Virus record (IMG/VR): IMGVR_UViG_2541047126_000026
Reading direction: 5' to 3' (one strand)
Length of the DNA stretch: 39,662 bases
DNA from: a virus
Taxonomy: Duplodnaviria; Heunggongvirae; Uroviricota; Caudoviricetes
This document shows, in pieces, positions 1,512 through 33,567 of this stretch. Positions within the stretch are counted from its first letter, which is position 1. Each line of letters starts with the position of its first letter. The notes under the pieces were generated by a model. The model was not told the origin of the DNA. It saw only the letters and a list, made by a program, of their open reading frames with translations, and did no database searches. The position numbers were made by a program, and so were the translations under genes.

Positions 1512-1757
1512 TTACATCATAGTACCGTCAGTTCCGGGCTGAACCGGCTCTGGTTGCTCTACGGGTTGAGGATCATTTTCCGTGCTGTTTTCAGCCGGAG
1601 AACGGCCAACCATTCGGGCCAGCACTTCATCAACATATGCGTCGATTTGTGCCTCAAAATCCTTGCGAACCTGCGCCTTCAGCACGCGGTTCACTTCTTC
1701 AGAATAAAGTGCCTGTTTGACAAGCTCTTCAGTAACCGTGCCTTTAATCTCTGGCAT
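1512..1757 (-). CDS. Hypothetical acidic 81 aa protein, cargo
   Basis: AAGGAG about 7 nt upstream of ATG; hydrophilic, Glu/Pro-rich C-terminus; no family recognised. Confidence 0.5.
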   Translation of the reverse strand: MPEIKGTVTEELVKQALYSEEVNRVLKAQVRKDFEAQIDAYVDEVLARMVGRSPAENSTENDPQPVEQPEPVQPGTDGTMM

Positions 1758-1792
1758 GAATATTCTCCTTTTGCAGGTATATTGCCCCGTTA

Positions 1793-1975: not shown

Positions 1976-2087
1976 ATAACCTTACCTTTGATATTGACTA
2001 CATAATTCGTTATCGGGTAAAAACATCGAAGCGACTGATAACCACTCCTTCGGGAGTATTTTTATTTTCCTTTATGGGTTAGGTAGC

Positions 2088-2125
2088 TCCCGCCAGCCAT
2101 ATCATGACCGGCGGGATTTTTTTAT
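2088..2125 (+). terminator. Hairpin plus T-run (CCCGCC...GGCGGG then ATTTTTTTA); loop is long, terminator-like on the plus strand only
   Basis: 6 bp GC stem with about 15 nt loop followed by a T-run; on the minus strand it is preceded by an A-run, so it does not look like the esterase terminator. Confidence 0.25.
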
Positions 2126-4161
2126 TCTGTTACCGCTTTTTTCACTTCCACCACAATGCTGTCAATCAGCACCGGGTAAGTTGCATTTTTTGTGATATCC
2201 GTTACGCGGAGTTTGTCCACCGGGAAAGTTCCTACTGGTGACTGCGTCAGGGTAAACGCGGCACCATCCTGACCATCAATAACCGGAATAACCTGAAGGC
2301 TGTTATTTCCTGCAAAACGGAAGGCCAGCGTATGCCATTCATTATCAAATGCACCAAAGGTTCCCAGTTTCTGGTTATTTGTTGCCACTTTTGCATTGTG
2401 GTACATCACATTCAGGTCTTTTGCGTCTGTCTGGATGTAGAACGATGCCAGCAGATTATTCCCTGCATCCCCTGTCAGGGTGACACCCTGCGGCAGAGAG
2501 GAAACCGGCCAGTAAAGCGCCATGACATACTGGTTTGCCACCAGGTCGCCCGGTACTTTAAAACGACAACTGATTAAACCACCATTTTTCAGCAGTTCAG
2601 CACCAGTACCGGCATCATGATCCAGATACCAGGATGATTTACCTGTTTCCTTGGTCAGTTTCATTGCCTTACCACCTGTGCCTCCTGCATCACTGATAAT
2701 TTCAGCTTTACCGCCAGCCGGCTCCCAGCCCTGGGCTTTCAGATTTCCTTCTGACTCACTGACACGATAAGACAGCAGTGTTGTGGTTACTGCTTCAGTT
2801 TCTGAAGGTGACGGCACTGGTGCTTCAGTTTCAGAAGATGGAACATCGGCTTTTACTGTGGTTCGCCCCGCATGAGTCAGAACTGCCGTGGCCAGACGGT
2901 CGGAAATAATCCCACGACGTGCCCATGAACTGAAATGGCTGGCCCGGTCCGCAGATGTCCAGGTGGCGGCACTGTTACGCCACGTTGAGCCGTAATAACC
3001 AATGGATTCAATATCCGGGTCTTCTGCCGGATTGTTGGTGGGTACATTCGCGTCATTTTCATCTGTCATTAATGGAACGAAATGAATGTTTTTATCTGTT
3101 TTGTTTTTGTAGCCGCCATAGATTGCCTGGTATGCCGGTTCATTTTTCTGTTTCCAGAAATACGTGGTATCGCCACAAATCCACGGAACGCCAGCAGCAC
3201 TGCCACCGGTACACTGTTCCGCCTGTTCAGCCAGGTCTGCGCGGAATTTTTCCACCATCGCCAGAAACAGCGCGGAATGCTCCGTCGGCTTCGCATCAAT
3301 ATCAAACTCGCCCTGCATCCACACCACAGCAAGCAGGCGGTTTTTCGGGTTCTTCGCCAGTGCCGCTTTTGTCCGGCTGATTAAGTCCTTATACAGCGGC
3401 TTATCCACACCCCAGCGGGCTGAGTCCTCTGAAGCACCCGTGCTGTCACTGTACGTGCCGTCAGCACCCGCCGTGAATGCAGAACCACCACGGCAGCAGG
3501 GAACCAGCAGAATCCCCGCATCTGCCGGAATAAACGGCAGCAGTTTTTTGGCAATGTGAAGCCCCTGACCCACGGTGCCATATTGCCCTTTAGCCACATC
3601 CGCTTTCGGGTGATTTTTTCCACTCATATCCTGCACATCATGCAGACAGTGGTCGGCCAGAATGATGTCGTTATACTGACAGGCTTTACCTCCCGGCGTG
3701 ACTGTACTGCGACGGGCTAACTGCATAATACGCGGTTCGGGGCGGTCATATGTCTCCGGCAGTGGCAGACCTTCACCGTAAGCCATACCGTTTGACTGAC
3801 CAGCAAGAACCACCACGTAATACCAGGAAGGGGAGCTGGAAGCAGTTTCATTTCCTGACGGACGGGTATGTGTTTCAGCATTATCCCAGTCTGACGGTTC
3901 AGCAGTGCCGGCAACATCAGCACTTAACGGAATGACCGCACCAATACCCGCTCCGGTAATTTCCACACTCGGATCACCGGATACTGGCCTTACCCACAGG
4001 CAATCCCGTGTATTAAAACTGATGAGACAGTCAGCAAATGTCATTCCTCCTTTTGTTTCGACCGGAGGAAAGGGAGCCTCAAGAAATGCCGCTGTACCAC
4101 CGGAAACTTTAACAGTAAAGTTTCCGGGCATTGATGATAGTTGAACCCATTTGGACGTCAT
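2122..4161 (-). CDS. Prophage NanS-p-like SGNH-hydrolase O-acetylesterase (N-terminal domain, esterase core, C-terminal lectin-like domain)
   Basis: 679 aa; GQSN motif in VVVLAGQSNGMAYGEG as in SASA/DUF303 sialate O-acetylesterases; extra C-terminal domain of about 250 aa; sits between gin and com where Mu has no gene. Confidence 0.65.
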   Translation of the reverse strand: MTSKWVQLSSMPGNFTVKVSGGTAAFLEAPFPPVETKGGMTFADCLISFNTRDCLWVRPVSGDPSVEITGAGIGAVIPLSADVAGTAEPSDWDNAETHTRPSGNETASSSPSWYYVVVLAGQSNGMAYGEGLPLPETYDRPEPRIMQLARRSTVTPGGKACQYNDIILADHCLHDVQDMSGKNHPKADVAKGQYGTVGQGLHIAKKLLPFIPADAGILLVPCCRGGSAFTAGADGTYSDSTGASEDSARWGVDKPLYKDLISRTKAALAKNPKNRLLAVVWMQGEFDIDAKPTEHSALFLAMVEKFRADLAEQAEQCTGGSAAGVPWICGDTTYFWKQKNEPAYQAIYGGYKNKTDKNIHFVPLMTDENDANVPTNNPAEDPDIESIGYYGSTWRNSAATWTSADRASHFSSWARRGIISDRLATAVLTHAGRTTVKADVPSSETEAPVPSPSETEAVTTTLLSYRVSESEGNLKAQGWEPAGGKAEIISDAGGTGGKAMKLTKETGKSSWYLDHDAGTGAELLKNGGLISCRFKVPGDLVANQYVMALYWPVSSLPQGVTLTGDAGNNLLASFYIQTDAKDLNVMYHNAKVATNNQKLGTFGAFDNEWHTLAFRFAGNNSLQVIPVIDGQDGAAFTLTQSPVGTFPVDKLRVTDITKNATYPVLIDSIVVEVKKAVTE

Positions 4162-28603: not shown

Positions 28604-28672
28604 ATCAGCCTCCGGTTCTCGCGTTCCCGGTAAGTTTAAAATAAAAATCCCGCGTTGTGGCGGGATTTGGAG

Positions 28673-29182
28673 TTAACGGGGAAGTGATTTTTCATACTGC
28701 CTGCAAACGGCGTCATACCCCATCAGCGTGCGTTCGGGCATTCCCATCGCGGCCAGCATTTTGCGGCGGTGCCATCGCTTGAGACGCTCCAGCACATCTG
28801 AGGCCAGGGCGGGGTGTTGCTCCAGCCACTGCCAGTTTGCCACACCTTCGCCGCCGTTCTGCGCGGCCGTCTGCGATTTCACCCAGCGGTTAAGGGCGGT
28901 TTCCGCACCATCAGAGATAAAGCCCTGCCGGTGCATCACCTTCCAGATGGCGCGAATTTTGGCGGTCACCGTACCCGGTTTTAAGGCCCGGTTAACCGGG
29001 TTCTGACGCACTTTAAAACCGCGTTTTTTGAAAACATCCAGCACGCGGGATAACTCATCCGGTGACATATCCCGGCAGCTGGTTTTGCCGGTGGCTGCCA
29101 GCAGCGCGGATGTATAAGTCTCATCATCCAGGGCAAGCTCGCGCTTTGCCACATGAATGGCGGATATCAGTTTTCCTCTCAT
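28673..29182 (-). CDS. gemA: GemA-like regulatory protein
   Basis: 169 aa; position immediately upstream of the Mor/C gene as in Mu. Confidence 0.65.
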   Translation of the reverse strand: MRGKLISAIHVAKRELALDDETYTSALLAATGKTSCRDMSPDELSRVLDVFKKRGFKVRQNPVNRALKPGTVTAKIRAIWKVMHRQGFISDGAETALNRWVKSQTAAQNGGEGVANWQWLEQHPALASDVLERLKRWHRRKMLAAMGMPERTLMGYDAVCRQYEKSLPR

Positions 29183-29475
29183 ACCGTATTTACCTTTTTA
29201 CGGACATGGAAAGCCTTTTCTGCCTCATCCCACCGGGCATGGTGTGTTGGTGGAATAATCATTATGTGCCAGCCATCTCTGGTTGTTATCCGGCAGAAAA
29301 ATTCACCGCTATATAACACAATGGCCTGCTGAATGAGCGCATCAGCCGCCCGTTCAACCGGATGTCTTTTATCAAAAAAGCAGATGATTTTTCGACATAA
29401 CCACCGGGTAATAACAAATGCGCCGAAAAAGGATGTGATATATAAGCACCAGAACAACAGAGAACTATTGTCCAT
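29179..29475 (-). CDS. Hypothetical membrane protein (98 aa), early accessory region
   Basis: N-terminal hydrophobic segment LLFWCLYITSFFGAFVITRWL; overlaps neighbours by a few nt. Confidence 0.45.
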   Translation of the reverse strand: MDNSSLLFWCLYITSFFGAFVITRWLCRKIICFFDKRHPVERAADALIQQAIVLYSGEFFCRITTRDGWHIMIIPPTHHARWDEAEKAFHVRKKVNTV

Positions 29476-29662
29476 TATCTTTCTCCTTATTCAGTCTTCT
29501 GCGACATTCGGCACAGTCATCAGGGCTTTCAAATGTATCCGGCTCGCGATTATGAGCCAGATATAACCACCGCCTACATATACTGATATTATCGCCAGTT
29601 TTAAAAAAATGATGCTTCTTAGCCATCAGAGGGCGCGCCCATCCAGCGGGTAGACTATTCAT
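29465..29662 (-). CDS. Hypothetical small Cys-containing protein (65 aa)
   Basis: Cys residues arranged C-x22-CxxC; possible metal-binding; no family recognised. Confidence 0.4.
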   Translation of the reverse strand: MNSLPAGWARPLMAKKHHFFKTGDNISICRRWLYLAHNREPDTFESPDDCAECRRRLNKEKDNGQ

Positions 29663-30029
29663 TTGCTTTATCCTCCATACTGGACAAAATCATCTGTATT
29701 AATGTCGGGCGTGGAGATATACGCATTTCATTAAGCGTCTGAAGGGCAGCAACAGCTGCCTGTTTATCGGTGCCTTTGGCAATTTCCGCAAGAGAATGCA
29801 CAATCCATAACGGACTTAACGCCACGACTGAATCCAGAATCATGTCATCCATAATAATTTCTGACACATCCCGCTTATCACATTCCTTATCCATAAAAGA
29901 AACGATTTTTTCCACATCTTCCGGTTTCATGCCTCCGGCGATAAGAAATTTGCGATACTCATAAGACGATCTTAATTCAATACTCATATTCATCTCCTGT
30001 AACTCTGACAAGGACGTGATTTTTCTCAT
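29655..30029 (-). CDS. Hypothetical protein (124 aa)
   Basis: ORF in an operon-like array; acidic; no family recognised. Confidence 0.45.
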   Translation of the reverse strand: MRKITSLSELQEMNMSIELRSSYEYRKFLIAGGMKPEDVEKIVSFMDKECDKRDVSEIIMDDMILDSVVALSPLWIVHSLAEIAKGTDKQAAVAALQTLNEMRISPRPTLIQMILSSMEDKANE

Positions 30030-30211
30030 TTATGTTTTCCAGTAATACGGATATATATGTCGATAAGAAGATTCATAATAAACAGGAAGAGCGACATCCT
30101 GATAAAGAACCAAATATCTGGCATCATGGACAGGTTTCCTGTAATCGCAAATATAAAACCAACCCCCAACACCGGAACGAAAATTGCGAAAAATACAAGT
30201 CTCTTTATCAT
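30026..30211 (-). CDS. Hypothetical small membrane protein (61 aa, two predicted TM helices)
   Basis: LVFFAIFVPVLGVGFIFAI and SLFLFIMNLLIDIYI hydrophobic segments. Confidence 0.45.
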   Translation of the reverse strand: MIKRLVFFAIFVPVLGVGFIFAITGNLSMMPDIWFFIRMSLFLFIMNLLIDIYIRITGKHK

Positions 30212-30759
30212 GGCGTTAACTCCCGTAATACAGCGTCCTCGGCAGTCCGGCGATGGTGATAAATAAAATTCACCGTACTCTCGGATAATTCAAATTTCTC
30301 GCCTATTTCCCGGAAGGTAAGACGTCGTGGTGATTCAGCATCCCGTAATTCACGAATAAGATGAACATCATCGTCAGGTATACGGGTGAAGGGCAGCAAT
30401 TCTCCGTATTTTTTCATGCTTACGCCAATATATCGCGCCCGATTGTGGACAGAATCCCGGTCTCGCCCCAGATATTCTCCTATTTGCTTACCGGTCATCG
30501 TTCTGGCATTTTTTCGGATAAATTTATCTTCATCATGTTTAAATCTTGGACGTTTGCATTTGAGCAACTCCGGGTAAGTACCGCGTAATAAAACAATCCG
30601 GTTATGTACACCCCAGAAACTTCTTTTTACCCTGACAGCAATATCCTTAACCGGGGTGGATGGATAAAGCGCAATCAGCAGCGCATCTTCTTCAGGTGTC
30701 CACGCACGGACATGAGCAGGTGCCTGACCTTTTCGCCCCATGGGTTGTAAAATCATCAT
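30208..30759 (-). CDS. Hypothetical DNA-binding protein with Myb/SANT-like and HTH-like segments (183 aa)
   Basis: WTPEEDALLIALY resembles a SANT/Myb helix; two more HTH-like stretches (TGKQIGEYLGRDRDSVHNR and LTFREIGEKFELSESTVNFI). Confidence 0.45.
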   Translation of the reverse strand: MMILQPMGRKGQAPAHVRAWTPEEDALLIALYPSTPVKDIAVRVKRSFWGVHNRIVLLRGTYPELLKCKRPRFKHDEDKFIRKNARTMTGKQIGEYLGRDRDSVHNRARYIGVSMKKYGELLPFTRIPDDDVHLIRELRDAESPRRLTFREIGEKFELSESTVNFIYHHRRTAEDAVLRELTP

Positions 30760-30762
30760 ACA

Positions 30763-31278
30763 TCACCCCCTGACTCGCTTTTCAGCAGCATAAAACTCAT
30801 CAGACAGAATTTCGGTCATTTTCTGATTTGCGGGTTTTACGCCGCACTCAAGGTAAATCACATCGTCAACGCAGAACCACTTCACAGGGCCAAACATGAT
30901 TGCCGAGAAATCAATACCCAGCCAGAACAACAGTGCATCGGTTCTGGCATACGTGACGGGCGAATATTCACGCCACAGACTGTTAAGTTCGTCAGAGGCA
31001 ACGCGCAGGGCTTTGGGAATACGTGATGTGCGCGGTGTGCAGCTCCAGCCATTCGACGCAGTCGGTTTTCGCCATAAGTCGCGATGAAAAGGATATTTGT
31101 CATCCATAAAGCGCAGCCCTTTAAAACAAAAGCCACTGATACCGGATACAAATACCGACCGGCACGCAACATTCAGCACGGCCTCAAGGCGTTTTGCCTC
31201 ATCCTTAACTTTCTGGCAGTCCTGCTGATATTTTTGCCACGCGGCCAGCGCGGAAGGGTTTGATGTTTTAAAGAACAT
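30763..31278 (-). CDS. Hypothetical protein (171 aa)
   Basis: ORF with 1 nt stop/start overlap with the upstream gene; no family recognised. Confidence 0.45.
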   Translation of the reverse strand: MFFKTSNPSALAAWQKYQQDCQKVKDEAKRLEAVLNVACRSVFVSGISGFCFKGLRFMDDKYPFHRDLWRKPTASNGWSCTPRTSRIPKALRVASDELNSLWREYSPVTYARTDALLFWLGIDFSAIMFGPVKWFCVDDVIYLECGVKPANQKMTEILSDEFYAAEKRVRG

Positions 31279-31811
31279 TACGCCACCTCCGCAGATATCC
31301 CGGCAGGCGCGGCCGTCCGGTCAACAATCAGGTAACGCAGAACGCGCGAGGTGATATTCCAGCCGCTTAAACCGCAGATAATGACACCCAGGCGTATGTC
31401 GATATACGCCATCACAAACTGGGGCACGCCTTCTTTCATGGCCTGCTCATCAACTTCAGCCACCACATAAACGGTTTCACAGGTCAGAACGCCCTGAGCA
31501 AATTCCCACGCCATTGACGGAATATCATGCCCCTCAATCCACGGCAGGGATTTTCTGAAGCTGCACCACTGAACATCATCAGCCGCACCTTCCTGGCTGC
31601 ATTTGCGACGAACCGGCTGCACCGGGCGGGGACGCGGAATATCATAAAAACCGTTACATTCCGTCAGCACCCCGGCATCGACCGCATCACGCAGAAAATA
31701 AACCATCGAGGATGGCGGCATATTCATTTTTTCAGCCAGAATGCCGCAGGTCAGACGCCCGTAAATACTCAGCCAGTTTTTAACCCCTTCAAGCACTTTT
31801 GCATCAATCAT
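31278..31811 (-). CDS. Hypothetical protein (177 aa), possible N-terminal winged helix
   Basis: ORF in the early operon; no family recognised. Confidence 0.45.
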   Translation of the reverse strand: MIDAKVLEGVKNWLSIYGRLTCGILAEKMNMPPSSMVYFLRDAVDAGVLTECNGFYDIPRPRPVQPVRRKCSQEGAADDVQWCSFRKSLPWIEGHDIPSMAWEFAQGVLTCETVYVVAEVDEQAMKEGVPQFVMAYIDIRLGVIICGLSGWNITSRVLRYLIVDRTAAPAGISAEVA

Positions 31812-31814
31812 GAA

Positions 31815-32357
31815 TTATTCCTCCGTCAGCGCCACATATTCAGAATGTTTAATCTCCTGGCATTCTTCAGGAATACCCCCTTTTATTTCCCTGCCATAAG
31901 CGCCTACTTTAAACACCACGCACAGGGCATCACGGGAGAGCGACGGGGTCCACCAGGAGTCCATGTTAAACATGGAGGGGATTCTCATTACCCCCAGCTT
32001 TTCACAGAGCCAGACAAGGAAATCAGGACGCTTTCTTAACTCGCGTTCAGCGGCTTCAATCATTGCGGCAATCGCCGGTCCTTCAGGGCATGACTCATCA
32101 GGTCTGGCAATAAAGCACGGTCCGTCCCCGATAAAAGCCACATCATCGCGCTTACGCCAGCCCGCAGGCAGAGCACCAGAAAAATAAAACTCACTGATTA
32201 CGTCCATGGCAAACGGCTTTAAGCGCAATCCGGCAGCGCCTGTATTTTTCAGTAATGCCCGAAGAATACTGTTGCGTAGCGGTAAAACAGTCTGTTGATA
32301 TTTGGTGAAATATTTATTTGTCTGCACACGGTCTAATTTGAAATAAAAATATGCCAT
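31815..32357 (-). CDS. Hypothetical protein (180 aa)
   Basis: ORF directly downstream of gam; no family recognised. Confidence 0.45.
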   Translation of the reverse strand: MAYFYFKLDRVQTNKYFTKYQQTVLPLRNSILRALLKNTGAAGLRLKPFAMDVISEFYFSGALPAGWRKRDDVAFIGDGPCFIARPDESCPEGPAIAAMIEAAERELRKRPDFLVWLCEKLGVMRIPSMFNMDSWWTPSLSRDALCVVFKVGAYGREIKGGIPEECQEIKHSEYVALTEE

Positions 32358-32454
32358 ATATCCTGTTCCTTATTTTCAGTTTACAGGCGCAGGCAGTCCC
32401 CTGACGCGAGCGCCATACTTAAAACGATGTGATATTTAAAGATTTAATGCGGTG

Positions 32455-32985
32455 TTATTTATTCAGTCCGGCGTCCTGTTCAAAAGGCTCGACATAAAAA
32501 CTTTCAGCGCCTTTATTCACCTTAATACCGGCAATGCCTTTCACTGCATCCGGCTCCGCCAGGACCGCTTCCTTGTTCACTTCCTCTTTCGTGCGGATGA
32601 ATCGCTCAAGCCCCATACGGCGCAGCATTTCAATCACACCTTCCACATCACGGCTGACGCTGCATGATGGATTTCCCAGCCGCCATGACACTGTTCCGGT
32701 GGTCAGATTGGCTGTTTTGGTTTTGCCGCCGTTCGTCAGCTCATCGCGGTTGGTTTTGCACCAGTCCTGAATCCCCTTAAAAAGCACTTTGATTTCTTTT
32801 TTAAGGTTTTCAATCTGCGGCGTATAACGGGCGGTGATTTCTGCCACTTCATCATTCATCGCTGTTTCCAGGCGCAGCGCCTCTCGCTGAATATCGCCCA
32901 GGGTGCGGATATCGCGGCTGACCTCTTCACGGGTCTGCGGTGCCGCCTCTGCTGCGGCCTTTAATTTTGTAACGCGTTTTGCCAT
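32455..32985 (-). CDS. gam: Gam host-nuclease inhibitor (Ku-like DNA end binding)
   Basis: 176 aa; strong match to Mu Gam as I recall it (LGDIQREALRLETAMNDEVAEIT, NRDELTNGGKTKTANLTTGTVSWR, FIRTKEEVNKEAVL). Confidence 0.85.
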   Translation of the reverse strand: MAKRVTKLKAAAEAAPQTREEVSRDIRTLGDIQREALRLETAMNDEVAEITARYTPQIENLKKEIKVLFKGIQDWCKTNRDELTNGGKTKTANLTTGTVSWRLGNPSCSVSRDVEGVIEMLRRMGLERFIRTKEEVNKEAVLAEPDAVKGIAGIKVNKGAESFYVEPFEQDAGLNK

Positions 32986-32996
32986 TTTGTTTTTCC

Positions 32997-33290
32997 TTAT
33001 TGCAGTGTGCCTGATGCTTTATGCACGCGGTGGCGTTTAATGATGGCATCCGCCCCAAAAGCCTGTACAGATGCCTGAAATTCCGCTGAGAGAAACTGAA
33101 TAAGTTCAGGACTGTGATACTGGAGAATACTTGCATAAACGTCACAGAGTGACGTCGGCCTGTTATTCGTATCACGTTCTGTTTTTACATCCACACCAAT
33201 CTTTTCATGCACTTCAACACAGTCATTGCCTGCCGGTTTTTCGTCATGCGAAACATGCTTAAATTCAAAAATAACGCGTACTTTGCTCAT
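32997..33290 (-). CDS. Hypothetical small early protein, paralog A; track ORF to 33317
   Basis: Begins MSKVRVIFEFKHV at the internal Met; shares its N-terminal motif with the adjacent upstream gene. Confidence 0.45.
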   Translation of the reverse strand: MSKVRVIFEFKHVSHDEKPAGNDCVEVHEKIGVDVKTERDTNNRPTSLCDVYASILQYHSPELIQFLSAEFQASVQAFGADAIIKRHRVHKASGTLQ

Positions 33291-33294
33291 GGAA

Positions 33295-33567
33295 TTACCC
33301 CTGCTGATTAAATTCATTACCTTTAATAACCCCGGAACGCATGCTCATATCTTTCATGAGCGCACTGGCTTTCATTGCCACAAGTTCAGCAAAGTCTCTG
33401 CTTTCCGCGAGCATAACCACCCCAAAAATCATGGCGGGTCCATCACCTTTCTGCTTTATCCCGGTTGAACGTATGTCCAGACTTACCCCCATGCGCACTG
33501 TTCCATCAGCGTTTTTATGGATAACGTGCTCCTTGTATTCGAAAATAATGCGTACGACTTTACTCAT
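33295..33567 (-). CDS. Hypothetical small early protein, paralog B (90 aa)
   Basis: Begins MSKVVRIIFEYKEHV; N-terminus paralogous to the downstream gene. Confidence 0.45.
   Translation of the reverse strand: MSKVVRIIFEYKEHVIHKNADGTVRMGVSLDIRSTGIKQKGDGPAMIFGVVMLAESRDFAELVAMKASALMKDMSMRSGVIKGNEFNQQG

Follow-up and report, generated by a model that had tools for sequence, protein, structure and literature searches.

The gam-gemA interval of a Mu-like Escherichia coli prophage as a probable mosaic of exchangeable accessory early genes

In the 39,662-nucleotide viral DNA of IMG/VR record IMGVR_UViG_2541047126_000026 (Caudoviricetes; the whole of it is referred to here as the window), the interval between gam and gemA is filled by eight co-directional open reading frames (ORFs), o1 to o8 (29179-32357), which, like all features of the window described below, lie on the minus strand. 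A preliminary description, made from the sequence alone, had delimited this block and named it as the most likely place in the window for uncharacterised systems. Our analyses suggest, with a probability of about 75%, that the block is instead a two-part mosaic of accessory early genes that can be exchanged one by one; its eight real genes, probably co-transcribed, follow A, B, kil and gam and precede gemA. The first part, o1 to o4, would be a backbone common to the Mu/SfMu lineage, with o2 as a slowly evolving anchor flanked by o1 and o3. The second part, o5 to o8, would be a strain-variable cassette zone of low GC content, whose products are a peptide with two predicted transmembrane segments (o5), an acidic relative of SfMu ORF14 (o6), a small protein with conserved His and Cys residues (o7) and a protein that has one predicted transmembrane segment and occurs as two diverged alleles (o8).

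We found that the eight ORFs are genuine genes, as judged from their family matches, the wide occurrence of the exact proteins and the substitution pattern. Seven of the eight matched PHROG families at E = 2.2e-32 to 2.2e-105, and o5 did so weakly (1.3e-05); each exact protein is present on at least 1000 contigs; and the ratio of non-synonymous to synonymous substitution rates (dN/dS), calculated against the diverged sibling prophage L021, was 0.06-0.36 across all eight, comparable to the 0.13 of gam and the 0.22 of gemA. Shine-Dalgarno motifs of the GGAGG/AAGGA type precede every start. As read from the sequence, the junctions are overlaps of 1-11 nt or gaps of 3 nt, so that the block is tightly packed, as described previously, except between o5 and o6 if o6 has the start that we favour. 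The longer ORF of o6 (29655-30029) encodes 124 aa, whereas its true start is probably M15, at position 29987, giving 110 aa (29655-29987), because an AGGAG site is well spaced from this codon, RefSeq calls a 110-aa protein and the PHROG alignment begins at residue 15; o5 and o6 would then be separated by 38 nt. The possibility that the small ORFs o5, o7 and o8 are not genes but chance frames, lying where a decaying prophage has degenerated or is untranslated, is raised by their shortness (61-98 aa), their low GC content, the absence of Pfam matches and the weakness of the PHROG match of o5. It appears very improbable, however, given their low dN/dS (0.26, 0.06 and 0.14, respectively), the good ribosome-binding sites with translational coupling, the o7 homologues that are 55-65% identical across several enterobacterial genera with His, Cys and Trp residues invariant or nearly so, the full-length coverage of o8 by phrog_17269 (E = 2e-32), and the report that the related Mu-like prophage Sp18 of O157 Sakai is intact, with its DNA efficiently packaged (PMC2669165). 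In public records, all eight products are named hypothetical or are given inconsistent DNA-binding names.

The preliminary description had stated that none of the eight products resembles a Mu protein, but BLASTP comparison with the proteins of Mu (AF083977) showed otherwise for three of them. Protein o2 (31278-31811, 177 aa) is 67% identical to Mu gp11 over its full length (E = 3e-80); o3 (30763-31278, 171 aa) shares 55% identity with Mu gp12 over residues 1-168 (E = 1e-66); and in o4 (30208-30759, 183 aa) the segment from residue 66 to residue 168 shares 30% identity with residues 1-92 of Mu gp9/E8 (E = 2.3e-8). Two further products, o1 and o6, are homologous to ORF11 and ORF14 of the Shigella phage SfMu, so that five of the eight have counterparts in Mu or SfMu. 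The most conserved gene of the block is o2, with at least 61% identity among the 10 diverse members aligned; its product matches phrog_1949 (E = 2e-105) and, in its C-terminal domain, Pfam PF25754 Gp11_C at 135.5 bits (cut-off 27; E = 7.9e-40), and its N-terminal segment of about 60 aa, with a hint of HTH_10 (E = 0.05-0.16), may be a helix-turn-helix (HTH) domain. When one genome per species was scanned for relatives of gp11, a single locus emerged, in Citrobacter braakii, and the gp11 family is therefore narrow, at least at the level of exact peptide patterns.

Protein o4, in which Myb/SANT- and HTH-like segments had been noticed earlier, does carry three tandem Myb/HTH-like modules, seen as three mutually alignable units in a repeat alignment, the third module being N-terminal. 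It matches phrog_323, labelled 'transcriptional regulator, D5-like' (E = 6.3e-59), and its Pfam matches all fall below the cut-offs (HTH_AsnC, 22.4 versus 27 bits; Myb_DNA-binding, 14.7 versus 24.4; Sigma70_r4, 19.4 versus 24.1), while RefSeq names for the same protein alternate inconsistently between Myb and AsnC-type HTH. With an isoelectric point (pI) of 9.9 and three HTH modules, o4 is a putative basic DNA-binding protein. Among sibling prophages the gene exists in two allelic forms, about 71% and about 97% identical.

Protein o1 (31815-32357, 180 aa) matches phrog_2260 over its full length (E = 1e-74) and is 40% identical to SfMu ORF11, which is annotated as DUF5420, the two sharing a C-terminal IKHSE[FY]VALTEE motif. 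The DUF5420 model itself (Pfam PF17457) did not match o1 at E<=0.1, and the scores of P0004, P0006 and P0014, relatives of o1, were 12-16 bits, below the cut-off of 26. A profile of the o1 subfamily nevertheless retrieved P0066, P0068, P0073 and P0075 over their full length (E = 1.6e-9 to 6.5e-6), all of which have precomputed PF17457 assignments, and phrog_2260 is common to o1 and the DUF5420 protein of locus L131. We therefore treat o1 as a divergent DUF5420 member. Colinear motifs shared by the o1 family and the PF17457 carriers are YFK.D, at the N-terminus, PD.RYKEGK, P.FS.W..LG and, at the C-terminus, EIK.SEF.ALTEE; in the alignment the last of these is strikingly conserved, whereas the RYKEGK loop is lost in o1, where the segment reads PDESCPEGP. 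The o1 family is small, with 14 clusters at 90% identity among 5.8 billion proteins and 26 representatives (E<=1e-3) among 1.84 billion, and the gene is optional, being absent from Mu and from some sibling prophages. Clustering at 90% identity also placed the unrelated o1 and o2 proteins (180 and 177 aa) together in one cluster of 2,247 members, a count to be used with caution; this joint cluster is presumably an artefact, perhaps of read-through or of a fused gene call across the 3-nt gap.

Protein o3 carries the RefSeq name 'Mu-Gp12 family', and 46 of its 46 relatives have precomputed PF26885 assignments, on which, together with the similarity to Mu gp12, its own placement in this family rests. 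Several observations suggest that o1/DUF5420 and gp12 (o3) are probably distant paralogues. A comparison of the two families with hhalign gave E = 1.2e-4, and one made in both directions gave 3.1e-4 and 3.9e-6; about 155 columns aligned colinearly, and the real scores were 30-40 as opposed to at most 18 for controls consisting of unrelated families, reversed profiles and 30 column-shuffles. In addition, the two independent AlphaFold2 models have an identical order of elements, namely a strand, a long helix, a strand pair, two helices, a strand pair, a strand and a terminal helix, with an extra strand pair after the first one in o1 at a place where o3 has a loop. The model of o1 is confident (predicted local distance difference test, pLDDT, 94; predicted template modelling score, pTM, 0.85) and that of o3 acceptable (pLDDT 83.8, pTM 0.78). 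Neither predicted alpha/beta fold had a significant neighbour in the PDB, and sequence searches of the PDB with o2, o3, o4 and the o1 profile returned nothing at E<0.1. Counting against the paralogy, only one of the five runs for o3 was confident, the hhalign probabilities were 40-87%, and an earlier, shallow o1 alignment had given E = 0.17 against o3, significance being reached only after the o1 alignment was deepened. In the literature on DUF5420, Gp11_C, Mu-Gp12 and Mup11/Mup12 we found no functional study.

The distal half of the block appears to be an accessory, cargo-like zone, judging by its low GC content, its replacement in sibling prophages and its diverged alleles. The GC content of o4 to o8 is 0.355-0.46, versus 0.52-0.57 for gam, o2, gemA, mor and the lysozyme gene. 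The lowest value in the block, 0.355, is that of o5 (30026-30211, 61 aa, pI 10.4), whose product has two transmembrane segments by hydropathy and a weak match to phrog_19804 (E = 1.3e-5). This gene is absent or replaced in L004, L006, L008 and L009, and in sibling prophages that are otherwise 92-100% identical it has other small ORFs in its place or joined to it (phrog_6925, phrog_6158 and others). Likewise, o6 to o8 can be replaced, sometimes by a reverse-strand gene, and o1 can be missing. All replacement ORFs that match a PHROG belong to families labelled function-unknown, and one replacement ORF is without a match. Just upstream of gemA, in place of o7/o8, L008 carries a gene for a DUF2513 protein (2065-2475, plus strand; phrog_585) and L009 a gene for a phrog_32893 protein (1530-1769, plus strand); both are moron-like insertions, transcribed against the early operon.

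The acidic protein o6 matches phrog_1988 (E = 5e-44), the alignment starting at residue 15, and is 37% identical to SfMu ORF14 (gp14; E = 1e-16). Related Mu-like phages again have members of its family in the variable region that lies upstream of gemA; in L128, for example, a phrog_1988 gene directly precedes gemA. The small basic protein o7 (29465-29662, 65 aa) matches phrog_2358 (E = 2.6e-33) and belongs to a family of 17 clusters (44-72 aa; full-length members 62-72 aa) restricted to the Enterobacteriaceae, namely E. coli, Salmonella, Citrobacter, Buttiauxella, Scandinavium and Trabulsiella. In the family alignment W8, H17 and H18 are invariant and C29, C50 and C53 nearly so, in agreement with the earlier remark on a Cys-containing 65-aa protein, and a metal-binding site is possible; o7 had no Pfam match, and the spacing of its His and Cys residues fitted none of the motifs tested. 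As phrog_2358 has 146 positions, we considered that o7 and o8 might be the halves of a longer gene that has been split, but rejected this, since full-length o7 homologues of 62-72 aa occur in several genera and o8 has its own full-length PHROG. Protein o8 (29179-29475, 98 aa; 4-nt overlap with the gemA start) consists of an N-terminal transmembrane segment, predicted by hydropathy, and a soluble domain; together with o5 it accounts for the two small membrane proteins noted previously. Comparison of the window with L010, L012, L019, L021, L022, L028 and L030 showed o8 to occur as two alleles whose proteins are about 50% identical (synonymous divergence saturated, dN/dS 0.14), the neighbouring genes being 92-100% identical. 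A two-form pattern is also seen for o4 and for u1, the ORF just upstream of gam (about 60% versus about 99% among sibling prophages), suggesting sharp recombination boundaries. No Muvirus counterpart was found for o5, o7 or o8.

To test the idea that gp11 works with a DUF5420 or gp12 partner, we assembled 125 related loci and sorted them by architecture, using family hidden Markov models; the pattern was that of independent cassettes rather than of one multi-gene system. The genes o1, o2 and o3 occur in every combination. The order gam-o1-o2-o3-o4(-gemA) was found in about 40 loci, the Mu type gam-o2-o3 in about 14, gam-o2-o3-o4 without o1 in about 12, gam-o1-o2 without o3 in about 12, and gam-o2 alone in 14, so that the idea of an obligate module is not supported and the o1-o3 genes are gained and lost independently. 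An alternative is that o1, o2 and o3, possibly with Gam, form one module acting on Mu DNA ends or replication, perhaps the unmapped 'arm' function of the Mu semi-essential (SE) region, with gp11 as a DNA-binding core and DUF5420 and gp12 as interchangeable partners. This would accord with the order gam, o1, o2, o3, which is fixed in 40 or more loci, with the conserved intergenic element that follows gam whatever gene comes next (see below), and with the distribution of the pairs, o2 and o3 being present in Mu, o1 and o2 in other phages and all three in the window. Two apparent losses of gp12 are also compatible with redundancy between paralogues. In L035 (4538-5089) and L037 (3415-3966), where an o1 homologue is present, the gp11 homologue departs from the usual C-terminal sequence, that of L035 having the terminal sequence GVNNGKQ, which resembles the end of Mu gp12 (VNNGKQ, the last four residues being NGKQ); this suggests that a fresh in-frame deletion took out nearly all of gp12 in these DUF5420-carrying phages. 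In SfMu (L007, NC_027382), where the DUF5420 gene is intact, an unannotated gap of about 500 bp between gp12 and gp13 holds a Mu gp12 homologue in two frames (1995-2363 and 2431-2562, minus strand), which may be either a pseudogene or the result of a sequencing frameshift; the SfMu paper, in contrast, had found no homologue of Mu orf12 (PMC4406740). Nevertheless, the parts occur independently, which makes the module unlikely: 14 loci carry gp11 without an o1 or o3 family member, L128 has a DUF5420 gene after gam without gp11, and L130 and L131 have DUF5420 in non-transposable temperate phages, beside a CII-like gene and with no gam on the fragment. The narrower proposal that gp11 always accompanies DUF5420 or its gp12 paralogue was rejected on the same observations. 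In L040, from a more distant Mu-like phage, an extra 192-aa ORF (3336-3914) lies between gam and the DUF5420 gene, and its N-terminal half looks, by eye, like a small MazG-type nucleotide pyrophosphohydrolase.

Under the mosaic interpretation, the eight proteins would be dispensable modulators produced early in lytic growth, of the host-modulating kind long ascribed to the Mu SE region. We expect that o2, possibly through its N-terminal HTH, and o4 would act on DNA or transcription and that o5 and o8 would act at the inner membrane, whereas o1, o3 and the cassette proteins would bind host or phage targets, because neither conserved catalytic-looking residues nor matches to enzyme families were found in them. 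Scans of the eight proteins against Pfam, NCBIfam and PADLOC gave only Gp11_C for o2 and the sub-threshold HTH/Myb matches of o4. Several points weigh against this reading. No tool used returned a functional assignment for any of the eight, in line with the earlier view of them as proteins of unknown function. The classification as binding proteins, not enzymes, derives from the absence of catalytic-looking motifs; the DNA-binding assignments derive from Pfam HTH matches below threshold (22.4 bits against 27 for o4; E = 0.05-0.16 for the o2 N-terminus) and a PHROG label; and co-transcription and early timing are extrapolated from Mu.

The preliminary description had placed anti-defence functions in this region, and it is conceivable, if somewhat doubtful, that all or some genes of the block have uncharacterised counter-defence or host-takeover roles, for instance by inhibiting restriction or abortive infection or, as membrane proteins, by excluding superinfecting phages. 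The position in the SE region, the deletion of which relieves host killing in Mu (PMC3325207), would suit such roles, as would the low GC content of the distal half and the swapping of cassettes between near-identical prophages, both typical of accessory or arms-race loci, the two o8 alleles in otherwise conserved surroundings and the small predicted membrane proteins o5 and o8. Precedents among transposable phages are Kil of Mu and Aqs1 of Pseudomonas Mu-like phages of the DMS3/JBD type, small dispensable proteins that act on host targets. The analogy of the eight ORFs with these effectors is positional only, the Kil homologue of the window being located upstream in the same array, and no similarity in sequence or fold was found, no comparison having been aimed at them. 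The database evidence, however, does not favour these roles: PADLOC-DB gave no credible match, the single one being that of o4 to a homing-endonuclease model (E = 0.008, 13.8 bits), none of the PHROG matches is in the 'moron / host takeover' category, and searches of the PDB found nothing, whether with sequences or with the folds of the two modelled proteins, o1 and o3. In addition, o1 to o4 are conserved backbone genes rather than variable ones, the dN/dS of 0.06-0.36 gives no sign of diversifying selection within alleles, and the presence/absence pattern points to independent cassettes rather than to a system. Anti-defence activity is thus possible, without positive support in the PADLOC and PHROG scans and with no search made against a dedicated anti-defence library. 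A more far-reaching proposal combines several elements, and we regard it in its entirety as improbable: that DUF5420 and gp12 form an unrecognised superfamily of phage early proteins, with a fold lacking a significant solved neighbour, in which the C-terminal helix, nearly invariant (E-I-K/L-x-S-E/D-F/Y...), would attach to a conserved target in the host, such as a nuclease of DNA repair or defence that acts at the same stage as Gam, and that at least one of o5 to o8 is a counter-defence or exclusion factor with a new mechanism.

The block belongs to a well-known kind of locus, the region known as semi-essential early (SEE) in transposable phages, and databases have contained its sequence for years. 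For about four decades the Mu SE region has been known as a source of host-killing and host-modulating functions, with most of its ORFs still unassigned. It comprises 14 ORFs, mostly of unknown function, forms part of the long early transcript, and host killing is relieved when it is deleted (PMC3325207; PMC4553209); the SEE region in general is described as long and poorly conserved, with many small uncharacterised ORFs (PMC8705779; PMC4553209). The block occupies the same position as the Mu SE genes between gam and gemA, on a transcript that is early in Mu and probably so here, and the two share o2 = gp11 (E10-12), o3 = gp12 (E13), the HTH modules of o4 and gp9 (E8) and the intergenic element after gam. 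They differ in that Mu lacks o1, o5, o6, o7 and o8 and has instead gp13 (Cys-rich), gp14 and gp15, none of which is similar to a protein of the window; in that Mu gp9 has two modules and lies upstream of gam, whereas o4 has three and lies downstream of the gp12 homologue; and in that gemA is preceded in Mu by a gap containing a semi-early promoter, whereas o8 overlaps gemA in the window. Clear homologues of the eight among characterised Mu genes are lacking, since the Mu counterparts are themselves uncharacterised. In SfMu, ORF11 (DUF5420) fills the o1 slot between gam and the gp11 homologue, and ORF14 is the homologue of o6, whereas the gp12 homologue is split and unannotated and o4 (at this position), o5, o7 and o8 are absent. 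ORF11 and ORF14 were described by the SfMu authors as unique to that phage (PMC4406740), but, o1 and o6 being homologues, they are not.

The gene upstream of the block, gam (32455-32985), encodes a protein with a Pfam Phage_Mu_Gam match (E = 1.5e-41) and 57% identity to Mu Gam, an inhibitor of host nucleases, and the downstream gene, gemA (28673-29182), encodes one with a Pfam GemA match (E = 4e-30) and 43% identity to Mu GemA. The order B, kil-like gene, three small ORFs, gam, o1-o8, gemA, mor and lysozyme gene, all on the minus strand, is that of a SEE region, as the preliminary description had recognised. The block, of about 3.2 kb, is 100% identical to chromosome segments in many Shiga-toxin-producing E. 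coli, including O157:H7 strains, and matches were found in 233 of 5,426 complete E. coli genomes. In RefSeq, one identical copy is annotated as part of a Mu-like prophage on the minus strand, in the order HTH regulators, Mu transposase, AAA ATPase (B), a small ORF, Kil, three small ORFs, Gam, the eight ORFs, gp16/GemA, Mor, lysozyme, spanin-type genes and head genes. We infer that the prophage is Sp18-like from the resemblance of this layout to Sp18 of O157 Sakai. Two small ORFs upstream of gam, u1 and u2 (32997-33567), have the motif MSKV(R)VIFE[FY]K in common at their N-termini (15 residues, BLASTP E = 8e-4) and may be tandem paralogues; BLASTP found no similarity between them and Mu early proteins at E<=1.

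A terminator scan located a strong intrinsic-terminator-like hairpin, with a 9-bp stem followed by a T run (TTATTTT), directly after gemA and before mor (28645-28668), which is likely the end or an attenuation point of the early transcript of the block. As there was also no excess of promoter-like or terminator-like sites within the block, the eight genes are probably co-transcribed as a single unit. The prophage in the window has one Mor/C-family gene, followed directly by the lysozyme gene, whereas Mu has a mor gene that overlaps gemA in the early operon; this single gene and the hairpin between gemA and mor indicate a middle/late regulatory layout different from that of Mu. Alignment further revealed a conserved non-coding element immediately downstream of gam (32358-32454), consisting of an AT-rich tract and a GGCGC-N19-GCGCC inverted repeat, which is shared with Mu (L002, 6326-6423), SfMu (L007, 3612-3702) and others, whether the gene that follows is o1, gp11 or DUF5420, and which could be a protein-binding or RNA-processing site. 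That the inverted repeat is a structured RNA was rejected, since its folding energy equals that of shuffled sequences (z = -0.02) and it has no Rfam match; no Rfam family was found anywhere in the window, and repeats within the block were limited to short, chance-like matches.

What is new here is incremental: the table of correspondences with Mu and SfMu, the probable paralogy of DUF5420 and gp12 with a fold lacking a solved neighbour, and the partition into backbone and cassettes. A specialist is unlikely to be surprised, and, beyond the generic screen already proposed, no long-standing question becomes directly testable. Should one of the small proteins turn out to be a new inhibitor acting on a repair or defence pathway of the host, this would be useful, the likelihood here being the general prior for phage early accessory genes. 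For the Sp18-like prophage carried by many Shiga-toxin-producing E. coli, the map is tidied into a backbone (gp11, gp12, gp9-like and DUF5420) and swappable cargo (o5-o8), and two orphan families, DUF5420 and gp12, are linked as probable paralogues.

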